Below the pieces are notes generated by a model that was given only the letters and a program-made list of their open reading frames with translations, did no database searches and had not been told where the DNA came from. DNA of 64,000 nucleotides, from contig OZ250139.1 of NCBI GenBank assembly GCA_965237405.1, positions 771,820 to 835,819 of the forward strand, in the 5' to 3' direction. Shown piece by piece: positions 8,393-28,545 of this stretch (the first letter of the stretch is position 1; each line of letters begins with the position of its first letter). Source of the DNA: Vicinamibacterales bacterium. Its GTDB lineage: Bacteria > Acidobacteriota > Vicinamibacteria > Vicinamibacterales > UBA8438. The translations under genes were made by a program, and so were the position numbers.

Positions 8393-9385
8393 ATGTGTCA
8401 TCGAGTTCTGGTGTTTGCAAGCGTGATGGCGGTGTTGGTCGCGCTTGTGTGGCTGGGTGCTGCACCCGCGGTCGCGCAGACCGTTCCGCCGAGAACGGCG
8501 TGGGGTCAACCGGATCTACAGGGGATCTGGGATTTTCGTATCATCACACCGCTCGAACGGCCAGAGGAGTTGGGGGACCAGGCGTTCCTGACAGAGGAAG
8601 AAGCTGCCAATCTCCAGCAAGAAACGGTCGACCGGAACGATTGGCTCCTGAACCGTCCCGCCGAAAGAACGGCGGTTAGTGACCAGGTGGATAGGCGGGC
8701 AGATGGCACACCCGGCTTCTATAACAACTTTTGGCTCGATGAGGGAGTCACTACTGTTGGCACGAGGCGAACGTCGCTAATCGTGGAGCCGCCAAACGGG
8801 AGGGTTCCGGACCTGTCGCCAGTTGGGCAGCAAAGAGCAGATGCCAGACGGGAGTATCAGCGTGAGCATCCGTCTGATTCATGGTTGGACCGAAACGCGG
8901 CAGATCGCTGCATTGTGGGCTTCAACGCTGGCCCACCTATCACGCCGCTCGGCTACAACCAGAATATGCAGGTCTTCCAAACGCCGGACCACGTCGTATT
9001 GGTTACTGAGATGGTTCATACGGCTCGTGTTGTGGCCCTCGGTGGGCGTCCTGTTCTCGGAGAGGGTATCCGCCAGTGGTCGGGGGATTCGCGCGGCTAT
9101 TGGGAGGGTGAGACCCTAGTTGTCGAGACCTCGAATTTTAACGTCGAGAGACGGTGGAGAGGGTCGACCGAGACGATGAAGCTAGTCGAACGCTTCACTC
9201 GTGTTGACGCTGACACTCTTGAGTACACGTTCACGGTCACCGATCCGGAGACTTGGACGAGCGCATGGACGGCGTCCATCCCGATGCGGCGAACCGATGT
9301 TCCGATGTACGAGTACGCGTGCCACGAAGGGAACTACAGCATGGTCGGTATCTTGGGTGGCGCGCGCGCAGACGATACAAAGTAG
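8393..9385 (+). CDS. Exported protein, unnamed family, paralog A (WGxPDLxG ... YEYACHEGNYSM)
   Basis: Signal peptide ending AVAQ, then PPRTAWGQPDLQGIW, RRTSLIVEPPNGRVP, ADRC, IRQWSGDSRGYWEGETLVVETSNF, ERFTRVDADTLEYTFTV and YEYACHEGNYSMVGILGGAR. It has three paralogs in this window. Confidence 0.8.
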   Translation: MCHRVLVFASVMAVLVALVWLGAAPAVAQTVPPRTAWGQPDLQGIWDFRIITPLERPEELGDQAFLTEEEAANLQQETVDRNDWLLNRPAERTAVSDQVDRRADGTPGFYNNFWLDEGVTTVGTRRTSLIVEPPNGRVPDLSPVGQQRADARREYQREHPSDSWLDRNAADRCIVGFNAGPPITPLGYNQNMQVFQTPDHVVLVTEMVHTARVVALGGRPVLGEGIRQWSGDSRGYWEGETLVVETSNFNVERRWRGSTETMKLVERFTRVDADTLEYTFTVTDPETWTSAWTASIPMRRTDVPMYEYACHEGNYSMVGILGGARADDTK

Positions 9386-9842
9386 TGATCACGCATCAGA
9401 GGGCGTGACCGATGGGCGCGTCTATGTCCTCAAGCGAAAGATGCGTGTTACCTCCGACACTGCATTCTCGGTGACCGACGAGTTCTCGTTGGGCGGCGGC
9501 GTCACTTCGGCATCTTGGCACTGGTTCGTACATCCGTGCCAACTGAGAACGCACCGTCTCAAGATGACCCGTGGCAGACACTGGGCACGGAGATCCGCTG
9601 GCAATCTCGTTCCCTGCTGATCTGATAGAGTGCGAATAACGGCTTGGGTTAGGTGGTCGGATCTTAGTCGTACTGTTTAGCGGTGAAGAAGGCTTTCCAC
9701 CGCAATATCACATCCTTCAATTACCATGGCATCGACAACCTTCTTTCGGGTTGCAAATGGCCCGCCGAGTTCTGGGTCCTCTGACAATTGAGCTGTTACG
9801 TCTACGGGTCGGTACTCGAGACGATAAAAGCTTGGTGTCGAT

Positions 9843-11624
9843 TCAGTCGAGGCTCGGTAAGGCGAACACGAACAGGTTATTGCCATTGCTCGGTCGAAGT
9901 TCTGGCGTTAGGCTAAGAAAACTGGGTGTGGTTGCGGCGCCTCCGGTGCTCACGGCCACGTACTGGCGTCCGTCGACCGCATAGCTGATGGGAAAGCCAG
10001 AAACCGGTGAGCCAAGATTGATCTCCCATAACACATCGCCGGTTTCGTGATCGAAAGCCCGGAACCGTCCGTTCGCGTCACCACCGAAGACCAGTCCGCC
10101 ACCGGTTGCTACTAGCGACAGCGTTGCCGCCCGCTGTTCGTGCAACCACACAGTTTCACCGGTTTCGGCCGATACGGCGTAGACCGATCCAAGCTGGTCG
10201 GTGCCAGGTGCGAACTCATGTCGAACGGCCAGCGCGTAGATTCGGTGGGACGCATCAGGGGAAGTCGTGGCGAGCAACCGCTGGCACATGTTGCGAAGCG
10301 GGAAGTACATCGTATTCGTCAGCGGGCTGTAGGCGCCGGCTTCCCAGTCCTTCCCGCCATGCATATTGGGGCAGACAAGGATTTGTTGGCCTTCCGAGGT
10401 AAAGATCACTTCCGCGTTCTCTGTTACGGCACCGGTCGCCCCGTCGATCTCGCTGATCACATTCTGTGCAACGGTTGGCGTGGCCCAGAGAAACTCGCCC
10501 GTTTCACGATCGAGCGTATAGACCACACCGGTCTTCCCTGGAATGCCAGTTATTACTTTTCGAACCTCGCCCGGTTCGAGTCGTGGATTGATCCAACTAA
10601 CCGCATCGGGATTCGGAGCAACTGGTGTATCGACGAGCATGCGCTCGAATGGATGATCGAGGTCCCAGTGGTCGTTCAAATGCTGGTAGTACCAGCGGAT
10701 TGCCCCGGTGTCGACGTCGAGCGCGAGTGTCGAATTATGGTAGAGGTGCGTGTTATTGATACCGCCAAGCATGAACTTAGGGGCCGGTGAAGTGACCGAA
10801 GTGCCCTGGTAGATCAACTGGAGGTCGGGGTCGTAGCTGGGCGGCATCCAGGTACCAACATGAACTCGTTCCTGGAACGGCACGCCACCCCAGGTTTCAT
10901 CTCCTGGTTCACCTGGTGCCGGTATGGTCCGCCGCCGCCACAGTTCTTGTCCGGTTCGCGCGTCGTGCGCCACGATGACGCACGACTCGGGGCCTCCACG
11001 TGGCCGGCAGCTTCGTCCTGATATCACTTTGCCGTCGGCAATGATCGGACCCGAACTGTGTCCGGCCGGATTCACCTGGTAGTCGAGAATTTGTGTTTCC
11101 CAAGCGATTTCTCCGGTCGTGGCATCGAGCCCAAACACGTAGTCATCGTCGCTGGTGTTGATAATGAATCGGTCGAAGATTGCAATATTTCGATTATTGG
11201 CCGAGTTACCGCCCACGTAGTCGTAGACATCGTCCGGGAGATCGCGACGATGGTCCCACTTCAGGTCGCCGGTTACGGCATCCATGGCCTGAATGACGTC
11301 GCGCGCCTGCGGCATGTACAGGATGCCGTCGTAGACCAGTGGTGTCCCTTCCTGACGTCCGGCCGCGAGCGCTCGTGTCCACACCATCTGTAGCGTGTCC
11401 ACGTTCTCGCGAGTAATCTGGTCAAGTGGGCTGTAACCCCAGCTATCGAGTGTCCGGCGCCACATCAACCAATAATCCGGTGACGGGTCCGCAAGCATTG
11501 CGTCGGTAACCGGCGTGAAGTTAGTTGTGGATTGTGCATGCCCCGGGTCGAGGATGGCCCCCTGCAGGACGAGAAGGAGCAAGAGCACGACGGTGCTCGG
11601 AACAATTAGACGGTGTAGGCGCAT
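9843..11624 (-). CDS. PQQ-dependent beta-propeller dehydrogenase (alcohol/aldehyde-dehydrogenase-like), exported, copy 1
   Basis: ORF 9843..11648. The likely start is MRLHRLIV, preceded by GAGGAA. WLMWRRTLDSWGYSPLDQI, repeated W-containing propeller blades and HLNDHWDLDHPFE are present. No cytochrome c motif. Confidence 0.85.
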   Translation of the reverse strand: MRLHRLIVPSTVVLLLLLVLQGAILDPGHAQSTTNFTPVTDAMLADPSPDYWLMWRRTLDSWGYSPLDQITRENVDTLQMVWTRALAAGRQEGTPLVYDGILYMPQARDVIQAMDAVTGDLKWDHRRDLPDDVYDYVGGNSANNRNIAIFDRFIINTSDDDYVFGLDATTGEIAWETQILDYQVNPAGHSSGPIIADGKVISGRSCRPRGGPESCVIVAHDARTGQELWRRRTIPAPGEPGDETWGGVPFQERVHVGTWMPPSYDPDLQLIYQGTSVTSPAPKFMLGGINNTHLYHNSTLALDVDTGAIRWYYQHLNDHWDLDHPFERMLVDTPVAPNPDAVSWINPRLEPGEVRKVITGIPGKTGVVYTLDRETGEFLWATPTVAQNVISEIDGATGAVTENAEVIFTSEGQQILVCPNMHGGKDWEAGAYSPLTNTMYFPLRNMCQRLLATTSPDASHRIYALAVRHEFAPGTDQLGSVYAVSAETGETVWLHEQRAATLSLVATGGGLVFGGDANGRFRAFDHETGDVLWEINLGSPVSGFPISYAVDGRQYVAVSTGGAATTPSFLSLTPELRPSNGNNLFVFALPSLD

Positions 11625-11933
11625 GCGGTATTCCTCATATGTGACCATGGCTACAATTGCCTGGCGCGGCGAGGATTGATTCTAACCCCAGATAGCAGCG
11701 ACGTGAGCACCATCGATGAACTGCTCGCCAACCATGAAACCTACGCCAACACCTTGCATGCTTGGTTGTCGCCGGCATTTCGCTCGTGATTGATGCGGTC
11801 GATTTGATCTGACACCTCTATGGTGACGGTCAGTTGCTCCATCGGTTGGGCTAGAATGATCCCTAACGACAGGCGTATACTGCGTCCTAGGTAAATGCGG
11901 ATGCAACCGAACGGTGAGATCAGAGGTGGCAGG

Positions 11934-12935
11934 ATGAAGAGATGTAGTTTCGTGGCTCTGTTGTTCGTCGTCGCGGTTGTCTCGCTGATTTCAGCCAATG
12001 CGGTGGGTCAGCAAGCGCCGCGAACCCCGTGGGGCGATCCGGATTTACAGGGCACGTACACCAATAAGACGATTACCCCGCTCCAGCGTTCCGAGGATGT
12101 AGGTAATAAGGAATTCCTGAGTAAACAAGAAGTGGAAACTCAGGAGCAAGCGCGTCTTGATCGTAACGAGCGTCTCCTCCATGCACCTCCGCAGCGCACG
12201 GTCGCAGGGGGCAACGTCGGTGGTTACAATAATTTTTGGCTTGATGGTGGAACTCGTCCAACGGGCCGTACGTCGCTGATCTTTGATCCACCAAATGGCA
12301 GACTTCCCCGCCCGACACCAGAGGGTGAGCGGCGACATGCGACCCACAACACGGCGTTTCCCGTTGAGGGCCCGTTCGACTCGTGGGAGGACCTTGAGCT
12401 GAACGATCGTTGCCTTGTCTGGTCCGCTGGTCCGCCGATGCTACCAAGCGCCTACAATAATAATTTCATGATCGTTCAGGCGCCGGGCTACGTAGCTATC
12501 TATGTTGAAATGATTCACGACACCCGAATCATTCCTCTTGATAAGCAGCCGCATCTTCCCGCAGGTATTCGCCAGTGGCACGGAGACGCACGCGGTCACT
12601 GGGAGGACAACACGCTCGTCGTTGAAACGACGAATCTGTCCAGGACTGAGGCTAACGCGGCCGCCGTTGGCGGCGACCCAATCTTGCTACGGGCGGCGAA
12701 TGGTCGAAAGGACGACACCATTACTGTCACTGAGCGATTTACGCGAGTCAACGGCGGCACCATCCACTACGAATTCACGATCGACGATCCCATGCAATGG
12801 ACGCAGAGCTTTTCGGGCGAGTTTCCCTTAGTGCCGCTGCCGCCGAACGAAGTGATCTATGAATACGCCTGTCACGAGGGGAACTACAGCATGACGAACA
12901 TCCTCGGCGGTGCGCGGATCTTGACCACACCCTGA
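11934..12935 (+). CDS. Exported protein, unnamed family, paralog B
   Basis: Likely start MKRCSFVALLF. Motifs PRTPWGDPDLQGTY, GRTSLIFDPPNGRLP, NDRC, IRQWHGDARGHWEDNTLVVETTNL and YEYACHEGNYSMTNILGGAR. Its stop TGA 12933-12935 lies 2 nt before the next gene's GTG. Confidence 0.8.
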   Translation: MKRCSFVALLFVVAVVSLISANAVGQQAPRTPWGDPDLQGTYTNKTITPLQRSEDVGNKEFLSKQEVETQEQARLDRNERLLHAPPQRTVAGGNVGGYNNFWLDGGTRPTGRTSLIFDPPNGRLPRPTPEGERRHATHNTAFPVEGPFDSWEDLELNDRCLVWSAGPPMLPSAYNNNFMIVQAPGYVAIYVEMIHDTRIIPLDKQPHLPAGIRQWHGDARGHWEDNTLVVETTNLSRTEANAAAVGGDPILLRAANGRKDDTITVTERFTRVNGGTIHYEFTIDDPMQWTQSFSGEFPLVPLPPNEVIYEYACHEGNYSMTNILGGARILTTP

Positions 12936-12937
12936 TT

Positions 12938-14959
12938 GTGACCCCAGCTCGGCGCTGCCTGATTCTCTCGGCGTTGATCCTGAGTGCCTGCACACCTGTC
13001 CAGCAGGACGTTGACTGGCCCGTCTACCTCGGCGATTCGGGCCGTCGCCACTACTCCACGCTGAATCAAATCAATCGAGATAACGTAGACCAGCTCCAAC
13101 TTGCATGGGTTTACAACTCCGGTGAGTCGAGAGGTAGTAGTTCAACCATGTACACGAGTCCGCTAGTCATTGACGGCGTACTCTACGGCTTATCCCCCAG
13201 GCTCGCGGCATTTGCCTTGAACGCGGCCACGGGTGAAGAGTTGTGGCGATTTGATCCAGGCCTTAGGGGGGGGAGTCAACGTGGATTGATGTGGTGGGAG
13301 AAAGATGGGGAACGGCGTATCTTCTACGCGGCTGGCCGCGAGCTGGTCTCGTTGAATGCGACGGACGGAAAGCCGATTGGGAGTTTTGGTGAGAATGGAC
13401 GTCTTGATCTCACGCCGAGCGGCGAACACATAGGTTACATCGGCGTGAGCGTTCCAGGCCTTGTATTTGCGGACAACATCATTCTTGGGTTTTCCACTAA
13501 TGAGACGGCCGAGGCGTTTCCCGGTTCCATCCGAGCCTTCAGCGCCATCGATGGTGAGCTGGTGTGGCAATTTGACACCATTCCGGCTCCAGGGGGACCA
13601 GGCTCCGAGACGTGGGCGGAAGGGTCACTGGAACGAGCAGGTGGTGCGAACGTGTGGACGGGCATGGCACTTGATGAAGAGCGAGGGCTTCTGTTTGCAC
13701 CGACCGGATCCGCGACTCCAGACTTCTACGGCGCGAACCGGTTGGGTGACAATCTGTACGCGAATTGCTTATTGGCGCTTGACGCTCGGACGGGTGAACT
13801 CAAGTGGCACTACCAGGTCGTTCGCCACGATCTGTGGGATCGCGACAACCCGTCGCCACCAACACTAGTGCAGCTTGACCGAGACGGCCAAACGGTTGAT
13901 GCAGTTTCGCTCACGACGAAATCAGGTCACCTGTACTTGTTCGATCGAGAAACGGGCGAATCGTTGTACCCGATCGTTGAGGTTACGACGCTGCCCAGCA
14001 CGTTGCCAGGCGAGGTGCCGGCGCCGACTCAGCCGGTGTCGACCATAGCCTTTACACGTCAGATGTTCGAGATTACGAACCTCAATGAAGCCGCAACGAA
14101 CGCCGTCCAGAGGACGATCGAAGATTGGGACCTACGGCTATGGGCGCCGCCGCGGGTTGGAACCCTACTTTTTCATCCGTGGTACGACGGCGGTGCCGAG
14201 TGGGGCGGATCTGCTTTCGATCCGACCAATAACCACTTGATCCTCAATGCGAACGACGTGACTGGCATTCTCGAGCTGACTGAAGTCCCGATTGGGTTCA
14301 GCGAATATGGCACCTACGCGCAGCATTGCGGCAGCTGCCACGGGTTGGATCGAGAAGGTACCGAAAACACCCCTTCGCTCGTAGGCATCCGTGACCGCTT
14401 GAACGTCGGTCAGATTGACGAGATCATTCATGAGGGCAGTGGGCGTATGCCTGGTTTTGCCCATCTCGGGGATGAAGAACGTCAGGGAATTCTGCGGTAC
14501 ATGTCCGCACGGGAGCCTGTAATCGATGAGCCGACAACGAAGGTCACGTACGTGCTGGACGGATATAAGTACCTTCGCGATCACGAAGGCCTGCCTGGTA
14601 ACACACCGCCCTGGGGAACATTGAATTCGATCGATCTCGCGACCGGCGAGATCGTCTGGACGGTGCCATTCGGGAATTATCCCTCGCACCCGGATCTCGG
14701 CTTCGGAGCCGTCAACTACGGCGGACCTGTCGTGACAGCATCCGGCTTGATCTTCATCGCGGCGACGCCCGACAGAATATTTCATGCCTACGACACGCAG
14801 GACGGCCAGGTTCTTTGGGAAGCCAATCTAACGGCGGCCGGCTTCTCGACGCCGGCGGTCTATAGCGTCCACGGTAAGCAATTCGTGGTAATTGCGGCTG
14901 GCGGCGGTCGGATGGGTCCGCCATCTAGTGGGGAGTACTTCGCATTCAGTCTGCCATGA
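12938..14959 (+). CDS. Lipoprotein quinohemoprotein: PQQ beta-propeller dehydrogenase (glucose/sorbosone-dehydrogenase-like) with an embedded c-type heme motif
   Basis: Lipobox LILSAC. DWPVYLGDSGRRHYS, HDLWDRDNPSPP and a CGSCH heme-binding motif at 14327-14341, followed by GSGRMPGF (Met ligand region). 673 aa. Confidence 0.8.
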   Translation: MTPARRCLILSALILSACTPVQQDVDWPVYLGDSGRRHYSTLNQINRDNVDQLQLAWVYNSGESRGSSSTMYTSPLVIDGVLYGLSPRLAAFALNAATGEELWRFDPGLRGGSQRGLMWWEKDGERRIFYAAGRELVSLNATDGKPIGSFGENGRLDLTPSGEHIGYIGVSVPGLVFADNIILGFSTNETAEAFPGSIRAFSAIDGELVWQFDTIPAPGGPGSETWAEGSLERAGGANVWTGMALDEERGLLFAPTGSATPDFYGANRLGDNLYANCLLALDARTGELKWHYQVVRHDLWDRDNPSPPTLVQLDRDGQTVDAVSLTTKSGHLYLFDRETGESLYPIVEVTTLPSTLPGEVPAPTQPVSTIAFTRQMFEITNLNEAATNAVQRTIEDWDLRLWAPPRVGTLLFHPWYDGGAEWGGSAFDPTNNHLILNANDVTGILELTEVPIGFSEYGTYAQHCGSCHGLDREGTENTPSLVGIRDRLNVGQIDEIIHEGSGRMPGFAHLGDEERQGILRYMSAREPVIDEPTTKVTYVLDGYKYLRDHEGLPGNTPPWGTLNSIDLATGEIVWTVPFGNYPSHPDLGFGAVNYGGPVVTASGLIFIAATPDRIFHAYDTQDGQVLWEANLTAAGFSTPAVYSVHGKQFVVIAAGGGRMGPPSSGEYFAFSLP

Positions 14960-14975
14960 GCGTTAATGTGGCAAC

Positions 14976-16907
14976 GTGAAGGCGTCACGGAGACAACGCA
15001 TGCGCGGTCGCATGTTCTTGCTACTAAGCGTTCGGGGACAAATGGTAGCGGCGGCTACTGCACTGGTACTGCTGATCTTTGTCGCTTGGTCATCGCCGGC
15101 CAGAACTGAATCGCTCACCCAAGCACAGCCGACGGAGGGGGAGGCCGCACTCCGACCACCATTCCTCGACCCTTCGCGCAACGCCTACTTTGGTGATTTG
15201 CACGTACACACCAGCTGGTCGCTGGACTCCTACATTATGGGTGGTAACCGAGACGGTCCAACCGTGGCCTACCGATATGGTCGCGGCGACCCGATCGCGA
15301 GGTCGGACGGAAACGTGGTGCGTCTGGGCGTGCCCCTTGACTTTATGGCGGTGACGGACCATGACGGCACGCTTGGAGAAGTCCATCTCTGTGAGGATGT
15401 CAGTGACCCTGCCTACGACACACCGACGTGTCGGGACATTCGCACCCAGCAAGTGTTCGGATCGCACTACGCCCAGTACCACAAGAGGGGACGACGCCCT
15501 CCAGAGATTTGCGGAGAGGATGGCATCGGTCCGCAGAACGAGTGCTACGAGCGCTCTCGGAACCTGTGGCAGGAGATCCAGGAGAACGCCGATGCGTTCT
15601 ATGAACCGGGTCGGTTCACCACGTTCCCGGGATTCGAGTGGACGGCCAGTCCTCCAGGGTATGGTCATTTGCATCGAAACGTGATCTTCGAAGGGCGTGC
15701 GGTACCCGAGTGGGGCGGATCGTCAGTGGAAATGCAGAATCGGCCAGAGCGGCTCTGGCAATGGCTCAAGTCCGCCTGCATCGGTGAGTGTCGGGTGGTG
15801 GCCATTCCGCACAACTTGAACCTAAGCGCGGGAGTCGCGTTTGCCGAGTCGGGCTGGGCGCCGCATACGCCGGAGATCCTCAGGCTCCGCGCCTGGGCCG
15901 AACCACTGGTCGAGATTCATCAGATTAAGGGCAGCTCCGAGTGTTATCTGGGCCTTGGCACGACCGATGAGGAATGCAACTTCGAGAACTACATTCCCAT
16001 CTGCGAACCTGGGCACCGAGAAGGTCGTCCGGATCACTACGCTCGGTGTGCCCATGCGTCTGACTACGTTCGCAACGCCCTGAAGACCGGCTTGCTGCTG
16101 GAAGCCGAATACGGCGTGAACCCGTTCAAGTTTGGTGTCCTCGCAAGTACGGACGACCACCAGAGCTTGCCAGGGGGGACCGCCGAGAATGACTTCACGG
16201 AACGGCCTATGAAATTCGGTACTACTGGTATGTGGACGGCGGGCCGGACGGCGGGCGATCAACCCGATGGCGGGAATGCGGGCAATCCTGGTGGGCTGGT
16301 GGGCGTATGGGCTGAGGAGAACACCCGCAAGTCGATCTTCGATGCACTCCGCCGCAGGGAAACGTTCGGGACCAGCGGTACACGGATCCGCGTCAGGTTC
16401 TTTGGTGGATGGGAGTTTGCCCTCGACCTGCACGAGAAGCACAACCTCGTCGAGGATGCGTATCGGACTGGGGTTCCGATGGGGGCCGACCTGCCGCTGC
16501 CACCGTCGGCGGGCGCGGTGCCTCGATTCGTCGTTTGGGCCATGAGGGATGCCGCCAGTGCAAACCTTCAGAAGATCCAGATCGTCAAGGGATGGGCTGA
16601 CGCCGTCGGGCAAACGAACGAACAGATATACGATGTGATCTGCGCCGATGGGTTGGAACCCGATCCCCGGAGTCACCGCTGCGCCGAAAACGGAGCGCGG
16701 GTGGATCTCGCCACCTGTCGCGCTTCCAGCGACGCGGGTTCCGAAGAGCTAAGCACGACCTGGAGCGATCCGGACTTTGATTCCTCGAATCGAGCCTTCT
16801 ACTACGTTCGTGTCTTGGAGAACCCGACCTGTCGTTGGACCGCCTACCGTGCGCTGGCCCGGCAAGCGTCGATACCGGATCGACCGGTTGTCAAGGAGCG
16901 CGCTTAG
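14976..16907 (+). CDS. DUF3604-family exported metal-dependent (PHP-like) hydrolase
   Basis: 643 aa with an N-terminal TM/signal segment. YFGDLHVHTSWSLDSY and MAVTDHDG are characteristic of DUF3604, as I recall the family. Confidence 0.65.
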   Translation: MKASRRQRMRGRMFLLLSVRGQMVAAATALVLLIFVAWSSPARTESLTQAQPTEGEAALRPPFLDPSRNAYFGDLHVHTSWSLDSYIMGGNRDGPTVAYRYGRGDPIARSDGNVVRLGVPLDFMAVTDHDGTLGEVHLCEDVSDPAYDTPTCRDIRTQQVFGSHYAQYHKRGRRPPEICGEDGIGPQNECYERSRNLWQEIQENADAFYEPGRFTTFPGFEWTASPPGYGHLHRNVIFEGRAVPEWGGSSVEMQNRPERLWQWLKSACIGECRVVAIPHNLNLSAGVAFAESGWAPHTPEILRLRAWAEPLVEIHQIKGSSECYLGLGTTDEECNFENYIPICEPGHREGRPDHYARCAHASDYVRNALKTGLLLEAEYGVNPFKFGVLASTDDHQSLPGGTAENDFTERPMKFGTTGMWTAGRTAGDQPDGGNAGNPGGLVGVWAEENTRKSIFDALRRRETFGTSGTRIRVRFFGGWEFALDLHEKHNLVEDAYRTGVPMGADLPLPPSAGAVPRFVVWAMRDAASANLQKIQIVKGWADAVGQTNEQIYDVICADGLEPDPRSHRCAENGARVDLATCRASSDAGSEELSTTWSDPDFDSSNRAFYYVRVLENPTCRWTAYRALARQASIPDRPVVKERA

Positions 16908-17690: not shown

Positions 17691-18617
17691 ATGATTGGCG
17701 ATGAAAGCCGCTGTGTGCTTCTGGGCTTCTTGTTTTTGGCCGCAACGCTCGTAGGGGTTCAGACGCAGGAGAATGCTGAAGGTGTGTCCCGTAAGCCCTG
17801 GGGTGTGCCGGATCTGAGCGGTTACTGGGAGTATCGAACGACCACGCCACTGCAGCGCCCGGTGGAGTTCGCGGGTAAGGCGGTACTGACAGCAGAGGAA
17901 GAGGCGGCATACCTCCGGCACCGATTACTCGAGATTCGGCGAGAGCGTGACCTGGACCTGAATGCCGACTGGTGGGTGCCTGGCGGCCTGACGAACGGCC
18001 GCACGTCGTTGGTGGTCAACCCGTCCGATGGCAGGATTCCTGCGGCCACCGAAGCAGCACGGCAACGTTCGGGGACACTGCGACTACGTGCTGCCGACGG
18101 GCCCGAGGACCGAGAACGGTACGAGCGCTGCATCATGGGGCGTACCGTGCCGCTCCTTGCCCAGGCACCCAACAAGCTCGCACAGATATTTCAGACGCCC
18201 GACTATGTCGCCATCCTTCACGAACAGAATTCCGACCTTCGCATTATCGCACTTGACCTAGCGGCGCCACTTTCTGGATCGATCCGGCAGTGGCAGGGGC
18301 ATTCAGGTGGCCGTTGGGCAGGCGATACGCTCGTCGTGGAGACCACGAACTTTAACGGGCAGTGGACGCTTCAGGGGGCGGGTCCGAATATGCGCATCGT
18401 CGAGCGGTTCCGAGTTGCCGACGCCGATACGCTGCAGTATGAGTTCACGATCGACGATTCAGAGTCGTTCGCTGGCTCATGGACGGTTGCGTTCCCAATA
18501 TCCCGGGCGATTGGCCCAGTCTACGAAAATGCGTGTCATGCGGGAAACCACAGCATGCCGCTCATCCTGAGTGGCGCGCGGGCGACAGAGCGTGCGGTAC
18601 GGGTAGGAGCACCCTAG
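17691..18617 (+). CDS. Exported protein, unnamed family, paralog C (most divergent intact copy)
   Basis: GGAGA precedes the ATG. SRKPWGVPDLSGYW, GRTSLVVNPSDGRIP, YERC, IRQWQGHSGGRWAGDTLVVETTNF and YENACHAGNHSMPLILSGAR. Its stop TAG overlaps the stop of the convergent PhoD gene (CTAG). Confidence 0.75.
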   Translation: MIGDESRCVLLGFLFLAATLVGVQTQENAEGVSRKPWGVPDLSGYWEYRTTTPLQRPVEFAGKAVLTAEEEAAYLRHRLLEIRRERDLDLNADWWVPGGLTNGRTSLVVNPSDGRIPAATEAARQRSGTLRLRAADGPEDRERYERCIMGRTVPLLAQAPNKLAQIFQTPDYVAILHEQNSDLRIIALDLAAPLSGSIRQWQGHSGGRWAGDTLVVETTNFNGQWTLQGAGPNMRIVERFRVADADTLQYEFTIDDSESFAGSWTVAFPISRAIGPVYENACHAGNHSMPLILSGARATERAVRVGAP

Positions 18618-20014
18618 AAGCTTCGTCGATAGAGCGCGTTTCCTGTCTGGTCGAAAAATTCGAACGTTAGCGAACGATCTGGATCGTAGGTTACGGTAAG
18701 GAACCCGCCACGTGCCGCGGAGTAGGGTTGCGTGACACCCTGATGGGTTTCGGTGATTGGTGGGACTGGTGCCGTGTGCAGGTCACAGGTCGGCCCGCAA
18801 CTGAACTCGCGAATTTCCCTGTCATTGCGCCGGTCCACCGATTCGTACTGCCAATGCCGGTCACCGCAGATGATCATCAGATTGTCCAGTTGGTGTTCTT
18901 GGACCCAGTCGAGGAAGGCCTGCCCCTCGGTCCAAAAGCCGTTCGGGTTGGCGTGGTTGTCGGTCTTCGTGATGCGATCGGGGCCGATTATCGGCGTGGG
19001 CGAAATCAGGACCCGCCAATCTGCGTCGCTCTCAAGCAACGTTTGCTTAAGCCATGCTAGTTGCTCGTGGCCCCACATCGTCTTATCGGGTCCATCGGGC
19101 ATGGCGTTCTCCGAACGGAAATCGCGCCCTTCGACTAGCCAGAGCTGCACGCCCTGTCCCCAACGAAAGGTTCGATACGTGGGGTCGCTCATGGGGAAGA
19201 CCTGCTTGAAGACCATGATGCCTTCTTCATGCGTGAGCCACTGCTCTGGGGTCGCCTTCTTACTACCATCGAGCCGTCCGCCGTCTCCCGCTTTCCACTG
19301 TTGCCAGCGATCGGCGTCGTTGAAGCGATAGTCGTGGTCGTCTTTTTCGAAGTATCCGCCGATGTGCTCGAAGTATTTCTTCATTAACGGAAGGCCGTAC
19401 ATCATCTGGTACGCATCGTATGCGCCCTGCACGTCCCGAGCCAGCGGCGACGTCATCGTCGGACCGATCCCGTCGTAGTAAACGTTGTCGCCCGTGGATA
19501 CCAGGAAATCTGGTTGCTGTGCGGCCATGTGTTGATAGGTCCGTTCCCCGCAGTAGTCCTGTCCTGTGGTCACTTGGAACTTGACCCGAGCCCGCAGGTT
19601 GGCTGCTGGTGCAGTCACGAACGAAAAACGCTTGGAACGTTCTGTCGCATCGCCGTCGTCGTTGCGATACTCGACAGTGTAGAAATGACGGTTACCTGGT
19701 GTCAGGCTCTTCAAGTGGAACTGAGTCGAGTAGTCTTTATTAGCCGTGGCCTCCGCCCACTCGGTGACCGAATCACTGTTGCCGGACTCCAGGATTCCGT
19801 AGTGCACCCGCGTTGATCCCTCGCACCCCGCGATCCGTCCGTCCGCGTTTTGCCCCGCTGCGGCCGTCAGCCGAACGTGGACGATCGCCGACGTATCGGA
19901 CATTTCGCCCACCTTAGCGCCAGACCCCAAATAAATTTTTTTTCCTGAATGAACCGTGGGCGCGGTCAGCAAGAGCACCAAGAGCGCCGTGTGTCCAACA
20001 AGCCGAAGGTTCAT
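18614..20014 (-). CDS. PhoD-like alkaline phosphatase / metallophosphoesterase, exported
   Basis: Signal peptide, FVTAP...VKFQVTTGQDY, FLVSTGDNVYYD, DDHDYRFNDAD and MIICGDRHWQ match the PhoD-like phosphatase layout. Confidence 0.75.
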   Translation of the reverse strand: MNLRLVGHTALLVLLLTAPTVHSGKKIYLGSGAKVGEMSDTSAIVHVRLTAAAGQNADGRIAGCEGSTRVHYGILESGNSDSVTEWAEATANKDYSTQFHLKSLTPGNRHFYTVEYRNDDGDATERSKRFSFVTAPAANLRARVKFQVTTGQDYCGERTYQHMAAQQPDFLVSTGDNVYYDGIGPTMTSPLARDVQGAYDAYQMMYGLPLMKKYFEHIGGYFEKDDHDYRFNDADRWQQWKAGDGGRLDGSKKATPEQWLTHEEGIMVFKQVFPMSDPTYRTFRWGQGVQLWLVEGRDFRSENAMPDGPDKTMWGHEQLAWLKQTLLESDADWRVLISPTPIIGPDRITKTDNHANPNGFWTEGQAFLDWVQEHQLDNLMIICGDRHWQYESVDRRNDREIREFSCGPTCDLHTAPVPPITETHQGVTQPYSAARGGFLTVTYDPDRSLTFEFFDQTGNALYRRSF

Positions 20015-20044: not shown

Positions 20045-20956
20045 CTATTGCGGTATGTCCCGACCTCCGAATAGCTGCATGCTGACCCCGGGCCGATTGA
20101 GCGATAGCGAAAGCTCACCTTCGCCGGCATAATTACCAGGGACCTCATAAACAAGTCGGTACCGTACTGACACCTGATCGGCGTGGGAGTTTATTTGCTC
20201 GGCCAAAGACGAGAGCTGATCGGGAAACCCGCTAGCGGTGTTAACCATCAGATTGCGACCGCCGGTATTTTTCGCGAGGTTGGCTGCGTACTGGAAGGAT
20301 TGTCCCCCAATGGTGTTCGACAAGAGAACCGCGTGAACGGTGGCCTGTCTCGTGACCAACTCCAGGACGAACTCGTTGTATTCCTCCGGGGTGAAGAAAC
20401 TACTCATATCGATGGTATCTGCGACGAGCAACACAAACATCGGCCATGAGTCTTCAGGCTTAAAGCGGCGCTCCCAGGTTTCGAATAGACCGTCCATCAT
20501 GCTCGAACCGGTGCCAACCTCGGTGTGGAGGTACTCGGACGCATCTATCAGCTCTTCACGGTCGGTCGTGAAGGCTTCACGTTGACGAATTTGAGGCGAG
20601 ATCGTGAAGAGGCCAACTTCGTACTCGGGGTTCAGGATGGACAGAAAGGTCTCGAACGCGACGCGCAGGTTGCTGTCCGCTCTTTCGTGGAACATTACGT
20701 CACCGAGGTCGACCAGGTAAGCGATCCTGGGGGAGGCGTTGTCGAGCGAGGTCGAGACCAAGGTGAGGGGGGTACCGTCCATGTTGAGCTTGAATTCGTC
20801 GGGCGTGAGATCCAGAACGGGTTCACCGAATTGGTCTGAAACGGCCACGTACAGTTGCCCTTGGTCTTGCGCAGTGGCTACGTTGGGTCCCAGCACAAAG
20901 ACGAAGCACACGACCAAAACCAGTAAACATAGTTTCGTAGAATGGATTCCCCTCAT
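20045..20956 (-). CDS. Exported VWA-like protein related to the TIGR03436-type family
   Basis: Signal peptide, then LYVAVSDQFGEPVLDLTPDEFKLNMDGTPL (the N-terminal beta domain typical of the family) and LAKNTGGRNLMV...YRLVYEVP at the C-terminus. It lies 31 nt upstream of PhoD. Confidence 0.55.
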   Translation of the reverse strand: MRGIHSTKLCLLVLVVCFVFVLGPNVATAQDQGQLYVAVSDQFGEPVLDLTPDEFKLNMDGTPLTLVSTSLDNASPRIAYLVDLGDVMFHERADSNLRVAFETFLSILNPEYEVGLFTISPQIRQREAFTTDREELIDASEYLHTEVGTGSSMMDGLFETWERRFKPEDSWPMFVLLVADTIDMSSFFTPEEYNEFVLELVTRQATVHAVLLSNTIGGQSFQYAANLAKNTGGRNLMVNTASGFPDQLSSLAEQINSHADQVSVRYRLVYEVPGNYAGEGELSLSLNRPGVSMQLFGGRDIPQ

Positions 20957-21782: not shown

Positions 21783-23084
21783 ATGAACTCGATGATCAGG
21801 TTCTTGATTTGCTTCGTGGTAGCCATGTTGTGGGCTGTATCTCCGACGGTCGCGCAAACGACCGACGATCCGTTTTCCTCACCCATTTCAGAAGGTGAAG
21901 GTGCCCTTCGCGTCGGCATTGAGGAGGTCGTCTCGCTACCGGACGTCGATGGTGGGGCAGTCCGGATGATGCTCTTGGCTGCCGAACCGGGGGCGGGTCG
22001 TTTGTTCGTCAACGATATGCGAGGGGTGCTCTATACCGTCAGCTACGACGGACAGACGGTGATCCGATACCTGGACCTCACAGCATCGAGATGGAATCTC
22101 GATATCCAGTCGTCTAATTTCGACCGCGGTTTTCAGAGTTTCGCGTTCCATCCGCAGTTTAGTGAATCGGCGACGTCCGGCTTCGGCAAGTTCTATGCCT
22201 ACACTCGATACGTCCAACCAGACGTCGATGCCGGACTTTACGCCAGGAGGCGGCCAGGACACCCACGATACCGTGTCGCTGGAATGCACCTCGGCCGATC
22301 CAGCTGCAGCGATGTACGACGGCGGTCCGCCGCGAGAGCTGTTCCGAGTGGAGCAACCGTTTACGAATCATAACGGCGGGCAGATTGGTTTCAATCCGAC
22401 CGTGTTGCCCCAAGACCCTGACTTCAGGCTGCTCTATATCGGTTCTTCCGATGGTGGGGCCGGCGGTGACCCGCTCGACCTTTCGCAAAATATCGGGTCG
22501 GTGTTTTGCAAGATGCTGCGGATCGACCCGCCGGGCGGAAACAGCCGAAACGGCGAGTATGGGATTCCAGAGGACAACCCCTTTGCGTCCGACGGGGATC
22601 TCGAGACGCTCGATGAGATCTACGCTTACGGTGTGCGCAATCCTCAAAGGTTCGCGGGGGATCCCTGGAACGGTCACATGTTCCTTGCAGACATCGGCCA
22701 GCAAACCTGACCTATCCCGTCGTGGAGTACGGACAGTTGGACCCGCTTCTCCAACCCGGCGCGGCGGCGACTGGCCTCGTGGTATCACGGGCGAGTTCGA
22801 TCCCGCTGCTCCTGAACGTCGTGCTCTTTGGCGACAATCCCAGCGGTGAGGTGTTCTACTTCGACGCGGACCAGGATCCGGCGGGTGGTCAGGATGCCGT
22901 TCGCCGAGTTGTTTTCAACGACAACGGGGAGTCGAAGACGTTGTTGCAGCTCGTGCAGGAAAAGAACGGCGAGCAGGGACGTTCACGGGCGACGCGCGCC
23001 GACCTGCGTTTTGGGTCGGGGCCGGACGGATAGGTCTTTCTTCTCAACAAGCGCGACGGTGTCATTCGGCGGTTAGTTCCGTAG
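21783..23084 (+). pseudogene. PQQ-dependent sugar (glucose/sorbosone) dehydrogenase-like gene with two compensating frameshifts and an in-frame TAG
   Basis: Frame 0 (21783-~22195): signal peptide ...RGFQSFAFHPQF...GKFYAYT. Frame +1 (~22195-22710): PDFTPGGGQDTHDTV...EQPFTNHNGGQIGFNP...LYIGSSDGGAGGDP...YAYGVRNPQRFAGDP...FLADIGQ. Back to frame 0 (22707-23030): LTYPVVEYGQ...VVLFGDNPSGEVFYF. TAG at 23031-23033, then VFLLNKRDGVIRRLVP and stop at 23084. Confidence 0.75.
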
Positions 23085-23204
23085 AACTGTTCGGCACACG
23101 ATGACTTGATGGCGTACCGCGGTCGTAATGGATAGGCGAGTAGGGCTGTCGACGCGGGCCGACCTGTCGATAGGGGTGGGAACGACCGAAACGATTAAAG
23201 AGGT

Positions 23205-24032
23205 ATGGTCGACGCTCCAACACTTTTTTGGCGACATCGTCTACACGAGATCGTATTCGAGGCGGATACCTCCGCTGGGAAAGCATTCGACGTCGCGCTA
23301 ATTTTCGCGATCGCCGCGAGCGTGACCGTCGTGATGCTCGAGAGCGTTGCCGCTCTGCGTCAGGAGTTTAGCTGGCAACTCGCCATCGCTGAGTGGTTCT
23401 TTACCGTGCTCTTTACCGTCGAGTATGGCGCCCGGATGTTGAGCGTCAGCCGACCACTTCGATATGCCAAGAGCTTCTTCGGTATCATCGACTTGCTCGC
23501 AATCCTGCCGACATATCTCAGTCTAATCATCACCGGAACGAACTCCCTGCTGGTCATTCGGGTGTTTCGCCTTTTCCGGATCTTCCGGGTCTTCAAGCTT
23601 CGCCACTACCTGACCGAGGTCCATGTGTTCGAGAATGCGCTGCGTAACAGCCGTCCGAAGATCACGGTCTTCCTGGTTACCGTTATCTCGATTGCACTGG
23701 TCATGGGAACCGTGATGTATCTAGTCGAAGGCGGGGCATCCGGCTTCACCAGCATCCCGCGCAGCGTCTATTGGGCGGTTGTGACGATGACAACCGTCGG
23801 CTACGGTAACATCGCACCCGTGACGCCGTTCGGACAATTCGCGGCGGGATGTCTGATGATCCTCGGGTATGCCATCATCGCGGTGCCTACTGGAATTATG
23901 TCGGTCGAGATCGCCCAGCAGATGAAGGGTCCTGCCGTATCAACCCAGGCATGTCTCGAGTGTGCCGCTGAGGGACACGACGTCGATGCGATGTGCTGTA
24001 AGTTCTGCGGGGCCAGTCTCGAGTTGGAGTAG
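23205..24032 (+). CDS. Voltage-gated-type K+ channel (six-TM, S4 arginine ladder, TVGYG filter) with C-terminal Cys4 zinc-ribbon-like tail
   Basis: LLVIRVFRLFRIFRVFKLRHY (S4-like), MTTVGYGNIAP (K+ selectivity filter), and a tail CLECAAEGHDVDAMCCKFCGASL. Confidence 0.8.
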   Translation: MVDAPTLFWRHRLHEIVFEADTSAGKAFDVALIFAIAASVTVVMLESVAALRQEFSWQLAIAEWFFTVLFTVEYGARMLSVSRPLRYAKSFFGIIDLLAILPTYLSLIITGTNSLLVIRVFRLFRIFRVFKLRHYLTEVHVFENALRNSRPKITVFLVTVISIALVMGTVMYLVEGGASGFTSIPRSVYWAVVTMTTVGYGNIAPVTPFGQFAAGCLMILGYAIIAVPTGIMSVEIAQQMKGPAVSTQACLECAAEGHDVDAMCCKFCGASLELE

Positions 24033-24342: not shown

Positions 24343-24813
24343 TTGGGTATGGGTAGGGAAGTCGAACGTAAGTTCCTGGTGGTTGGGGCCGAGTGGCGGC
24401 AGACTAGTGGCGTTGTGTACCGCCAAGGTTACCTCAGTACGGTGAAGGAACGGACGGTCCGTGTTCGTACGGCGGGCGATCGCGCGTACCTCACCATCAA
24501 GGGTAAGGTCGTGGGTGCAACGCGGTCGGAATACGAGTACGCAATCCCTACGCGTGACGCCGAGGGGATGTTGGCGGACCTCTGCGAGCGGCCTTTGATC
24601 GAGAAGCGTCGATACCGGGTTGAACACGCTGGGCTGACTTGGGACGTCGACGAGTTTCTCCATGAGAACGCCGGTTTAGTGCTCGCGGAGGTCGAGCTCG
24701 AACGCGAAGGCCAAGTCGTTCAAAGGCCGGCTTGGGTCGGGAAGGAAGTAACCGACAATCCTCGATATTTTAACGCAAATCTGACCCGGCATCCTTACCA
24801 GGAGTGGTCATGA
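24343..24813 (+). CDS. CYTH-domain protein (triphosphatase / class IV adenylate cyclase fold)
   Basis: EVERKFLV (EXEXK signature), AYLTIKG, TRSEYEYAIP, IEKRRYRV, WDVDEF and LVLAEVEL. Confidence 0.75.
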   Translation: MGMGREVERKFLVVGAEWRQTSGVVYRQGYLSTVKERTVRVRTAGDRAYLTIKGKVVGATRSEYEYAIPTRDAEGMLADLCERPLIEKRRYRVEHAGLTWDVDEFLHENAGLVLAEVELEREGQVVQRPAWVGKEVTDNPRYFNANLTRHPYQEWS

Positions 24814-25895: not shown

Positions 25896-26309
25896 GCTAG
25901 TCGTGTATTTGGGTTGTCTCAATGGAGGCCGTGCTCGCGCTCTTACTGGTTGCGCTAGTTATTTTTTTTGCAGCGTTCGTTCGTCGCCCGAGCCCGGCCG
26001 GTTAGCTCGTTGTCGCAGATTCCTTGCTACGTTCCCAGCTGCCTCATTTGCTTCGCACCACAGTACGTCTAGGTCATTCCGATTGATTCGCTGTTTACGG
26101 AACGGCTGGGCGTCGAGTTCGTGCCCCCTCGCTCCGCGCAGGTGCGGATGGTACCTGAAGCGCGAGCCATCTCTAGCCTTCGTTCTTCAACTTCCGTCGT
26201 CGGAAGTAAGTCCTGGCGCGTCGCACCTGGCACGCCGGTGCAGCCATTGAGAGTCTGTGGGCATAGAATGGCGTCGCCCTGTGTACGCACGGGGACTTTG
26301 GGGGGGGCT

Positions 26310-27218: not shown

Positions 27219-27444
27219 AGCGGACTCAAGGTCGCAGGAGAGTCGGTCCGTCGATGCACGAAAAGTAGACTTTTGTCTACCGTGGCGGACGGCCAGCTTG
27301 CGCCACACCTGATGATTGCACCCGTTTGTGGCCAGAGTAACGCTGTCGCATCACATTATCTCGTTACAGGAAAATCCATCGGCTAGAATAGCCACCTGCC
27401 GTCGTCGGCGGACCCTGTCGTCGACGTGCGCGGGGAGGTTTCCG

Positions 27445-28545
27445 ATGGATTATCGATGTTTCAGGTATTCAGTCTGCGTGGTTTCGACGCTGGTCACCGT
27501 TGGATGGTGGGCGTCAGCTGTTACCTTGGTGCAAGCGCAGATACCCGCAGAGGGGTCCGCGCCATTTCTGACTTCGTGGGGCGACCCGGACTTTCAGGGA
27601 ATCTGGGACAATCGTACTATTACTCCCCTGGAGCGACCGCAAGAGTTTTCCAACAAAGCCGTGTTAACGGCCGAGGAAGCGGCCGTGTATGAGGCCGCGA
27701 TCGCCGAACGTCGAGTCGACGATCGCTCACACTGGGATCGTGGAACTCGAGTCGTCGAGGATCGCCGGACCTCGCTAGTTATTGACCCATCGAACGGAGC
27801 CATACCTGCCATGACCGCTGAGGGACAGAGCAGGCTCGACTTCTCGCGAGAGCAGGGTGTCAACGGCCCAGAGGAGCGAAACCCGTCCGAACGGTGCATC
27901 ACCCGGTCGGTGCCGCGTTTGCCCGGCCTCTACAACAATAATTTCCAGGTCTTCCAGTCGCCTGGTTATGTAGTAATTCTCATGGAGATGATTCACCACG
28001 CGCGAATCATTCCGCTGGACGGGCGACCGCCGCTTATGTCGCACGTTCGCCAGTGGAATGGTGACTCACGGGGGCACTGGGAAGGTCAGACGCTTGTTGT
28101 TGAAACAACTAATTTTAACGGGGGAACAAAATTTCGGGGGTCTGCCGAAAATCTGGATCTAGTCGAGCGGTTCACGCGAGTCGACGCAGACACGATCGAC
28201 TACCGCTTCACTGTCGATGATCGGACGACGTGGACTCAATCGTGGACTGCGCGGATTCCGTTGAATCGAAATGAGGGGCCGTTGTACGAGTACGCGTGTC
28301 ATGAACGGAACGATGGCATGACAGGCATCCTCGAGGTAAATCGCAACGTTGAGAGGGGCACACCCGCCGTTGCAGCCACGAAGTCAACCTTGCGCCGGCA
28401 GCGCAAACACGAACAAGTTGCTCCCAAAGCTCGGGCGGAGTTCCGGTGTCAGACGGAGGTGGACCGTTGCGCCGATGCCGGTATTGACCGCCACGTACTG
28501 GCGTCCGTCGACGGCGTAGCTGATCGGATAGCCGACAACCGGTGA
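27445..28545 (+). CDS. Exported protein, unnamed family, paralog D; motif-degenerate and extended ~60 codons past the family C-terminus (possibly decaying)
   Basis: GGGGAGG precedes ATG 27445. SWGDPDFQGIW, RRTSLVIDPSNGAIP, SERC, VRQWNGDSRGHWEGQTLVVETTNF and ERFTRVDADTIDYRFTV, but the terminal motif is YEYACHERNDGM (G->R, Y->D, S->G). The ORF then runs antisense into the PQQ gene to 28545. Confidence 0.65.
   Translation: MDYRCFRYSVCVVSTLVTVGWWASAVTLVQAQIPAEGSAPFLTSWGDPDFQGIWDNRTITPLERPQEFSNKAVLTAEEAAVYEAAIAERRVDDRSHWDRGTRVVEDRRTSLVIDPSNGAIPAMTAEGQSRLDFSREQGVNGPEERNPSERCITRSVPRLPGLYNNNFQVFQSPGYVVILMEMIHHARIIPLDGRPPLMSHVRQWNGDSRGHWEGQTLVVETTNFNGGTKFRGSAENLDLVERFTRVDADTIDYRFTVDDRTTWTQSWTARIPLNRNEGPLYEYACHERNDGMTGILEVNRNVERGTPAVAATKSTLRRQRKHEQVAPKARAEFRCQTEVDRCADAGIDRHVLASVDGVADRIADNR

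Follow-up and report, generated by a model that had tools for sequence, protein, structure and literature searches.

An unnamed family of exported proteins with a predicted calycin-like barrel, encoded among PQQ dehydrogenases of Vicinamibacterales

Introduction

Are the four related exported proteins that are interleaved with pyrroloquinoline quinone (PQQ) dehydrogenases in a Vicinamibacterales bacterium dedicated partners of these enzymes, or members of something broader? The stretch in question, hereafter the window, is the whole 64,000 nucleotides (nt) of contig OZ250139.1 from position 771,820 to 835,819. A first-pass annotation made from the sequence alone had described its four copies of the family, A to D, as periplasmic accessory proteins of quinoproteins, acting as substrate-binding or substrate-presenting modules, maturation factors or redox partners. 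The analysis reported here shifts that emphasis. The family and the PQQ dehydrogenases have expanded together and share genomic islands and occasional operons, and they form no fixed pair; the tightest partner of the superfamily is DUF6152, together with DUF6644, and not a quinoprotein. The window copies themselves are tentatively read as non-redox periplasmic ligand-binding proteins that would serve the enzymes of their island.

This is one of the larger protein families without a name, a domain model or a structure, its carriers in the Vicinamibacterales and Bryobacterales are abundant soil and ocean bacteria, and it shares islands with recently described expansions of putatively lanthanide-dependent PQQ dehydrogenases. 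Were its members to carry a ligand or a metal for periplasmic oxidation, a gap would be filled in how these bacteria process dissolved organic matter. New here are a confident fold model, a likely disulfide, a shortlist of conserved polar residues and the recognition of DUF6152 and DUF6644 as constant partners, and the cultured Sphingomonadales carriers offer tractable hosts for genetics.

Four paralogs of a family without a name

The family genes of the window are the following.

8393..9385, plus strand: copy A, 330 residues, type 1; Sec leader, WGQPDLQGIW, RC(173), barrel 190-301, YEYAC(310)HEGNYSM
11934..12935, plus strand: copy B, 333 residues; given by the open reading frame (ORF) list, translation, alignment and tblastn
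17691..18617, plus strand: copy C, 308 residues; most divergent of the four, YENACHAGNHSM
27445..28545, plus strand (ORF also listed from 27316): copy D, 366 residues as an ORF; homology stops near 28362; degenerate C-terminal motif listed as YEYACHERNDGM

In all four, a hydrophobic leader of the Sec type precedes (A/P/S)WGxPD(L/F)xGx(W/Y); they can be aligned over their full length and are paralogs of 35-46% identity. Within the 64 kb, each retrieves exactly the other three by tblastn at E-values well outside chance (1e-44 to 1e-83), and a search with all four proteins finds no fifth copy there. ORFs, translations, alignment and tblastn thus agree with the earlier description of four exported paralogs with shared motifs. 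The coordinates given for A, B and C also hold (for B an alternative start exists at 11895, and the normal leader is obtained from 11934), but the end of copy D, which had been placed near 28362, does not. The ORF of D has no stop at the family's usual place and runs on to 28545, so that its last 162 nt lie across the 3' end of the PQQ gene that converges on it (28384-30321). Likewise the C-terminal motif described as near-invariant stands except in copy D, where it reads YEYACHERNDGMTGILEVNR and is broken at six positions (G313R, Y315D, S316G, G322E, G323V and A324N in copy-A numbering). Because an identical 366-residue product is encoded in independent assemblies (three independent contigs), this is a property of the organism and not an assembly error, and copy D may be either a decaying copy or a genuine extended variant. 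Its tail (window 28300-28545) contributes two extra cysteines. Long antisense ORFs lie within three copies (12045-12447, 17822-18175 and 27594-27902, all on the minus strand), and such antisense ORFs of family genes recur in many loci and are themselves "conserved" between loci. A promoter and terminator scan together with Rfam gave nothing specific to the family.

That the family is unnamed, as in the first-pass annotation, is borne out by database searches. In Pfam-A (2025 copy) and NCBIfam 20.0, copies A, B and D are without a match at E <= 1, copy C obtains a single chance-level match (FAXC_N, 15 bits against a cut-off of 27) and the divergent type 2 relatives described below obtain none. 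A profile of the four copies (A1) has no match at E <= 10 among 177,635 PDB sequences, and the source names of all cluster members are either "hypothetical protein" or absent. As far as sequence comparison reaches, it belongs to no known family.

It is nevertheless large. Copy A has at least 8,000 homologs and copy C 3,951, mostly from Vicinamibacterales or from metagenome-assembled genomes of Acidobacteria, and a profile search of 1.84 billion cluster representatives (50% identity) gathers 21,820 clusters at E <= 1e-3, 10,505 at 1e-10 and 2,230 at 1e-30. Among the matches listed from GTDB, taken as one genome per species, 594 of 599 pattern matches encode a relative; the majority belong to Vicinamibacterales, Bryobacterales and Terriglobia and a few to Gammaproteobacteria (such as Porticoccaceae, Ca. 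Multivorans and Rariloculaceae), and several loci often come from one genome. Single 17-kb loci may hold several copies. No close relative of A was found by tblastn in the 72,556 plasmids of PLSDB. A leader is present in 125 of 136 representatives, as the claim of export demands, and Tat or lipobox signals occur in almost none. Rare fusions exist: P0261 (714 residues) combines an N-terminal CVSCH motif and a squalene-hopene-cyclase-like toroid with a type 1 barrel, and P0259 and P0360 (about 430-440 residues) carry a C-terminal Lipocalin_5 domain. These fusion partners were considered as clues to function and dropped as too sparse, amounting to Lipocalin_5 twice and one CxxCH with a terpene-cyclase-like toroid.

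A predicted barrel and a conserved cysteine pair

What kind of protein is this? With an alignment of 136 diverse sequences (A3, the window copies plus representatives), AlphaFold gives a model of pLDDT 89.8 and pTM 0.86, as against a pLDDT of 70.7 with a shallow alignment. Behind the leader, the model has a well-ordered N-terminal part that contains two short strands (44-47 and 130-132) and two long helices (68-87 and 143-158). The barrel is built from eight strands spanning 191-301 (pLDDT 90-98), and residues 312-329 make up a C-terminal helix. The predicted architecture is therefore that of a single domain in which an N-terminal wrap of about 150 residues, comprising the WGxPDLxGxW segment and the two long helices, would surround an eight-stranded antiparallel barrel of the FABP/calycin kind, followed by the C-terminal helix.

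Foldseek against the PDB matches the barrel only, and weakly (about 120 columns, E 3e-4 to 1e-2, target TM 0.45-0.54, query TM <= 0.24), the matches being tardigrade SAHS proteins, CRBP/FABP and streptavidin, with probabilities of 0.99-1.0 despite the weak E-values. There is no whole-chain match to a solved structure in this search (best query TM 0.24), no cupredoxin among its 50 best matches, and no match at all among viral structures. Since the barrel alone is matched, the protein is best described as a calycin-like barrel with a large family-specific elaboration and no solved relative. The known calycins (FABP/CRBP, SAHS proteins, avidins and lipocalins) share with it an antiparallel up-and-down beta-barrel of about 110-120 residues, and the Arg, Glu and Tyr residues conserved on its strands are reminiscent of the polar side chains by which FABPs anchor their ligands; the 150-residue wrap, the C-terminal helix, the cysteine pair and the signal peptide are its own, and there is no sequence similarity. 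None of copies A to D has a lipocalin, FABP or avidin match in Pfam. Homology of the barrel to the Lipocalin_5 domain of the fusions was tried by hhalign of A3 and rejected (probability 0.5%).

Conservation was tabulated over 154 sequences (150 representatives and the four window copies). In type 1 proteins Cys173 is conserved at 100%, Cys310 at 96-100% and His311 at 90%, whereas Met317 is freely exchanged among Met, Leu, Ile and Val (47/33/12% given). Cys310 always occurs together with Cys173, 137 residues apart, and the pair is retained in all three subtypes, within ...KCYLPG... and ...EYKC(P/V)EF in type 2 and within ...NCSPPG... and ...EFQCSEN in type 3. The mature proteins of the 136 representatives have two cysteines in 121 cases, four in 15 and an odd number in none. 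Because the pair is near-invariant, never leaves an odd count and is kept in three subtypes, Cys173 and Cys310 most likely form a structural disulfide, by which the C-terminal tail would be fastened to the N-terminal part.

This bears directly on the speculation in the first-pass annotation that the invariant Cys-His near the C-terminus ligates a metal or cofactor, which is weakened. The cysteine has a partner in Cys173, and His311 is a feature of type 1 that is absent from types 2 and 3; together with the variability of Met317, its absence leaves a Cys-His(-Met) cofactor site without support. A cupredoxin-like or haem site of this composition was rejected on the same observations, CxxCH being absent from A to D. 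The residues common to all three types are P40, G44, W46, C173, G180, P182, E206, R212, W229, G231, G235, W237, L242, V244, E266, R267, P285, E307, C310 and G323. Among more than 130 diverse representatives the near-invariant charged and polar residues are E206 (98%), R212 (97%), E266 (99%), D284 (97%), E307 (99%), E312 (97%) and N314 (97%), and E266 lies on a strand face that it shares with L264 and F268.

Neighbors in the window: three PQQ dehydrogenases

How firmly, then, is the family tied to PQQ enzymes? The genes that accompany it in the window are these.

351-1055: 3-keto-disaccharide hydrolase homolog
7096..8238, plus strand: NHL-repeat/lactonase-like beta-propeller lipoprotein, 380 residues; upstream of A
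9843..11648, minus strand: PQQ dehydrogenase 1 (PQQ1), 601 residues; Pfam PF01011, sorbose/alcohol dehydrogenase type; W-D-L-D; convergent with A
12938..14959, plus strand: PQQ dehydrogenase 2 (PQQ2), 673 residues; lipobox and cytochrome c domain; W-D-R-D; translationally coupled to B
14976..16907, plus strand: DUF3604 protein, 643 residues; third gene of the B operon
17194-17215: terminator-like hairpin after the DUF3604 gene
18614..20014, minus strand: PhoD-like phosphatase, 466 residues; convergent with C
28384..30321, minus strand: PQQ dehydrogenase 3 (PQQ3), 645 residues; 73% identical to PQQ1; W-D-L-D; convergent with D
30920..31936, plus strand: lactonase-like seven-bladed propeller, 338 residues; right-hand edge of the exported-enzyme island

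The neighbors described earlier are confirmed. Three copies abut PQQ genes, A and D convergently (A across a gap of 457 nt) and B by translational coupling, its stop at 12935 being separated by 2 nt from the PQQ2 start at 12938 in an operon that runs B, PQQ2, DUF3604; the fourth, C, is convergent with the PhoD gene and overlaps it by 4 nt. Whether A with PQQ1 and D with PQQ3 represent one duplicated pair was considered; PQQ1 and PQQ3 are 73% identical, but the identity between A and D is only 46%, and A is no nearer to D than to B. The region from 0.3 to 32 kb forms an island of exported or periplasmic enzymes, which holds the 3-keto-disaccharide hydrolase homolog, a GDSL lipase, the NHL/lactonase-like lipoprotein, the three PQQ enzymes, the DUF3604 and PhoD proteins and the lactonase-like propeller.

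The nearest PDB entries of PQQ1 and PQQ3 are 9m2c, 4cvb, 7wmd and 4mh1 (E 1e-133 to 1e-118). PQQ2 has distant solved relatives only (best 1yiq, E 2e-35); its lipoprotein signal is LSAC, and its cytochrome domain (Pfam Cytochrome_CBB3 at 459-522, CGSCH at residue 464) is inserted between propeller segments and is not C-terminal. With this domain of its own, PQQ2 does not need B as its electron acceptor. Moreover, copies A to D lack CxxCH and the mature protein has only two cysteines, so that the proposed role as a redox partner finds no support in the sequence.

All three window enzymes carry D-x-D (WDLD, WDRD and WDLD in PQQ1, 2 and 3), where their solved relatives have W-D-(Q/S)-E, that is, D-x-E. 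A 2025 paper (PMC11996626) uses D-x-D as diagnostic of lanthanide binding and reports that single genomes of marine Acidobacteria and of Pseudomonadales UBA9145 can encode as many as 70 such PQQ enzymes, many of them of the sorbose-dehydrogenase-like kind. The window genes resemble these putatively lanthanide-dependent enzymes in their nearness to 4CVB, in D-x-D and in their Acidobacteriota genome, and their sequences fit the picture of such marine expansions as the paper draws it; for the terms searched, it makes no mention of the present family or of neighboring hypothetical proteins.

Neighbors elsewhere: co-expansion without a fixed pair

In a survey of 79 GTDB loci with 8-kb flanks, 172 family genes were fixed by a hidden Markov model (HMM), and their commonest neighbor is another family gene (88/172). 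A PQQ gene is adjacent to 14 of the 172 (8%) and lies within two genes of 27 (16%), and six family genes share their strand with a PQQ gene no more than 60 nt away. The PQQ share of non-family genes falls with rank, from 6.4% at rank 1 through 5.1% (2), 3.2% (3) and 2.9% (4) to 2.3% at rank 5 and beyond (6/257), which makes ranks 1-2 about twofold enriched over rank 3 and beyond (Fisher p = 0.04). Pfam assigns 11 of the 137 immediate neighbors to PQQ, 11 to DUF6152 and at most two to any other family (amidase, phosphoenolpyruvate mutase, ankyrin, alpha/beta hydrolase, SGL, NHL, DUF3604, tannase and penicillin amidase among them), the remainder being varied exported hydrolases and oxidoreductases. 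The D-x-D motif is present in 31 of the 32 PQQ genes near family genes in these loci. The orientation of family and PQQ genes varies, being divergent, co-directional on either side or convergent.

Nor do close relatives of the window copies keep their neighbors. Relatives of A at 75-78% identity lie between a DUF6503 gene and a translationally coupled gene of the metallo-beta-lactamase fold, or are convergent with a BBE-type flavin adenine dinucleotide (FAD) oxidase, with PQQ genes at a distance of two to five genes; B's relatives, 70-74% identical to it, face an SGL/gluconolactonase-like propeller. The order NHL-A-PQQ1-B-PQQ2-DUF3604-...-C-PhoD is kept only in a 99%-identical strain. In that strain (two loci), insertion sequence elements, a methyltransferase and a P63C gene replace the window's genes upstream of NHL-A, and in one of its long-read assemblies copy C and the PQQ2 gene are fragmented, possibly by sequencing errors. 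NHL propellers adjoin family genes in nine other loci, and DUF3604 stands beside or near family genes in two. An apparent cluster of metallo-beta-lactamase neighbors (23 loci) was set aside as consisting mostly of long antisense ORFs of family genes, real neighbors of the beta-lactamase fold being occasional.

The reverse survey, of 80 metagenome loci around relatives of PQQ1 and PQQ3 (69-89% identity), gives a similar picture. At least one family gene is present in 34 of the 80; one lies within 900 nt upstream of the PQQ1-like gene in 15 of 59 readable cases (25%; 12 divergent, three co-directional) and within 900 nt downstream in six of 56 (11%; all co-directional), and where both flanks are readable it is adjacent in 11 of 43 (26%). 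The family genes beside closely related PQQ genes (70-87% alike) are different paralogs, 34-63% identical to A. Of the proposal that these proteins are quinoprotein accessories, the enrichment beside PQQ genes thus survives, PQQ being jointly with DUF6152 the top Pfam neighbor, whereas a dedicated role is not supported; colocalization above background is real and concerns a minority of family genes.

A module with DUF6152 and DUF6644

Is any gene a constant companion of the family? Each of the 18 DUF6152 (PF19649) genes found in the 79 GTDB loci directly adjoins a family gene (p = 1e-11); usually it lies downstream of that gene and in the same direction, the gap being -4 to 50 nt. Type 2, a divergent subfamily with 16 genes in these loci, lies directly upstream of a type 1 gene in 15 of 16. 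The result is a recurring module, [type 2][type 1]n[DUF6152], found in nine loci among others, spanning Acidobacteriota, Gammaproteobacteria and Sphingomonadales and usually accompanied by two DUF6644 (PF20349) genes. The A3 HMM matches the type 1 genes of the module at E 1e-115 to 1e-154.

Look-ups seeded with DUF6152 lead to the same association. Six Sphingomonadales plasmids matched, and in all five examined a type 3 member stands beside DUF6152. Type 3 members are shorter, are annotated "hypothetical protein" and match the family HMM at E 8e-32 to 2e-17. Examples are these.

L085 6303-7109: type 3 member, WP_053833712.1, on plasmid NZ_CP011453.2 of Croceibacterium atlanticum 26DY36
L087 5985-6893: type 3 member
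L088 and L089: type 3 loci

Among the five plasmid loci (L085-L089) a TonB-dependent receptor is nearby in two and a DUF6644 pair in two. The cultured carriers of type 3 are Croceibacterium atlanticum 26DY36, Novosphingobium humi (KACC 19094), Novosphingobium sp. KACC 22771 and PP1Y, and Sphingobium sp. TomTYG65. Sulfonate-utilization genes lie beside one Sphingomonadales type 3 locus.

Four further look-ups, in metagenomes and one genome, gave [type 2][type 1]x1-4[DUF6152] in three, with two convergent DUF6644 genes right after the array in two of these and about 2 kb further on in the third (L179); in the fourth, [type 2][DUF6152] is followed by another superfamily gene and stands beside a PQQ gene. 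Family genes are thus beside DUF6152 in every DUF6152-seeded locus examined (five plasmids and the four look-ups, the latter covering six loci), and DUF6644 pairs occur in seven loci. One array includes a DsbA-like gene and has a heavy-metal P-type ATPase gene on its flank. Examined for a common theme, the genes flanking the arrays proved heterogeneous (P-type ATPase, DsbA-like, oxalate-type thiamine pyrophosphate and CoA-transferase genes, FAD oxidase, EF-G, dicarboxylate symporter).

DUF6152 and DUF6644 are genomic partners of the superfamily but different proteins, both of them uncharacterized Pfam families that lack a solved structure. DUF6152 has about 110 mature residues, of which the first two are His-His; an Asn-Pro-His, a Trp and a Glu are also kept, and no solved relative was found. 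DUF6644 has about four hydrophobic segments, as in a membrane protein of about four transmembrane segments, and a weak match to DUF2214 (E 0.003). An exported protein with an N-terminal His encoded beside small polytopic membrane proteins recalls CopC/CopD, although CopCD systems are not known to include arrays of 300-residue barrel proteins. In the literature searched, there is no account of the DUF6152/DUF6644 module, no paper on DUF6152, DUF6644, DUF6503 or DUF6526, and only an unrelated paper on DUF3604. In the window itself tblastn finds no DUF6152, DUF6644 or type 2 gene, only the four type 1 copies being matched.

Possible functions

What might the proteins do? On the tentatively preferred reading, the window copies are non-redox ligand-binding proteins. 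Each would hold a small molecule in a candidate conserved polar pocket formed by Glu206, Arg212, Glu266, Arg267 and Glu307, and would capture substrates or products, or pass them on, for the PQQ dehydrogenases, the lactonase-like propellers, DUF3604 and PhoD. They would act as stand-alone type 1 members rather than as stoichiometric quinoprotein subunits, the tail being pinned to the N-terminal part by the putative Cys173-Cys310 disulfide, and elsewhere the superfamily would work within the fixed module of type 2, type 1 and DUF6152 genes, usually with two DUF6644 proteins.

Several considerations weigh against such a role. The ligand, the cavity and the binding residues are all putative, and the conservation of many polar residues over thousands of paralogs is no less compatible with a catalytic or cofactor site common to the family than with carriers of varied ligands. 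The resemblance to calycin structures is weak and extends over one third of the chain. The fixed partnership with DUF6152, with its His-His, and with the four-segment DUF6644 hints at metal or electron handling and not at the carriage of substrates. Finally, at distances above 2.5 kb from PQQ genes there are still 0.8 family genes per 10 kb, so that adjacency is only about twice the local background, and colocalization may partly reflect two co-expanded families that share islands.

Somewhat unlikely, and the strongest competitor, is that the family is enzymatic: a calycin-type barrel with, for instance, lyase, hydrolase or isomerase activity on the substrates or the oxidized products (keto-sugars, lactones, aldehydes) of neighboring dehydrogenases, with paralogs that differ in substrate range. 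The near-invariant E206, R212, E266, D284, E307, E312 and N314, of which E206, R212, E266 and E307 are, like R267, kept in all subtypes, could be expected of an active site, and big tandem arrays of paralogs are typical of catabolic enzyme families. The neighbors are catabolic as well (PQQ enzymes, BBE/FAD oxidase, metallo-beta-lactamase fold, amidase, tannase, SGL and NHL propellers), and the window adds its 3-keto-disaccharide hydrolase homolog. However, no similarity to a known enzyme family or active site emerged from Pfam, NCBIfam, PDB or Foldseek, the conserved charges could equally be salt bridges between the N-terminal wrap and the barrel, and no substrate can be named.

A broader proposal, which we consider unlikely, joins the barrel superfamily, DUF6152 and the paired DUF6644 into a previously unrecognized four-part envelope system. 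Its stand-alone type 1 members would have been recruited, in dozens of copies, as partners of the PQQ dehydrogenases, putatively lanthanide-dependent, that have expanded in Acidobacteriota of sea and soil and in some Gammaproteobacteria; to these enzymes they could deliver metal (lanthanide, calcium or copper), PQQ or substrate.

Periplasmic metal handling as such, of copper or of calcium or lanthanide for PQQ enzymes, is improbable. By analogy, DUF6152 would be a CopC-like carrier, the DUF6644 pair CopD-like and the barrels their clients or carriers, the window copies being orphans. This would account for the adjacency of 18 of 18 DUF6152 genes and of all the DUF6152-seeded loci, for the His-His start and the N-P-H, Trp and Glu of DUF6152, for the recurring DUF6644 pairs and for the array with a heavy-metal P-type ATPase and a DsbA-like gene, and it agrees with the many conserved carboxylates of the family and with the D-x-D motif, proposed to bind lanthanide (PMC11996626), in all the local PQQ enzymes. 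But the window is devoid of DUF6152, DUF6644 and type 2, and over 80% of the type 1 genes have none of them close by; for a chaperone it would be odd to find as many as five barrel genes to one DUF6152 and dozens in a genome; there is no His-, Cys- or Met-rich site, His311 not being kept across subtypes; and the likeness to CopC/CopD is tentative.

The family shares with MxaJ/XoxJ, which are periplasmic-binding-protein-like factors, and with the cytochromes cL XoxG/MxaG that its members are exported and encoded beside PQQ dehydrogenases; A to D differ from them in having no Pfam match, no CxxCH, a calycin-like barrel and a loose linkage to PQQ genes. That they are dedicated PQQ dehydrogenase accessories, whether as substrate-presenting subunit, maturation factor or electron acceptor, is very improbable: three of the four local copies abut PQQ genes, one of them translationally coupled, PQQ heads the Pfam neighbors with family genes within 900 nt upstream in 25% and downstream in 11%, and both families are expanded in the same lineages (Acidobacteriota, some Gammaproteobacteria), but a PQQ gene is missing from the two-gene surroundings of 84% of family genes, orientation varies, orthologs swap neighbors, different paralogs stand beside PQQ genes 70-87% alike, no redox cofactor motif is present while PQQ2 brings its own cytochrome c domain, and the Sphingomonadales members have DUF6152 and TonB-dependent receptors for company and not PQQ genes.

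Other genes of the window

The right half of the window is housekeeping in character (hemE, protoporphyrinogen-oxidase-like, mnmA, cysteine-desulfurase-like, thioredoxin-reductase-like, hflX and acyl-CoA dehydrogenase genes). Five more ORFs of 196-608 residues have no Pfam match: 5387-6232 (minus), 20045-20956 (minus), 21783-22373 (plus), 39067-40431 (plus) and 49370-51196 (plus). Between copies C and D lie a gene for an Ion_trans-type (voltage-gated-like) channel (23205-24032, plus) and a CYTH-domain gene (24343-24813, plus), with no obvious link to the island. ARAGORN places a 90-nt tRNA-Leu(gag) at 35790-35879 (plus) inside a flavin amine-oxidase/protoporphyrinogen-oxidase-like ORF (35055-36428, minus), which is probably a false positive, since Rfam is silent there at its gathering score. 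A tRNA-Lys(ttt) at 6765-6839 (minus) is backed by both ARAGORN and Rfam.

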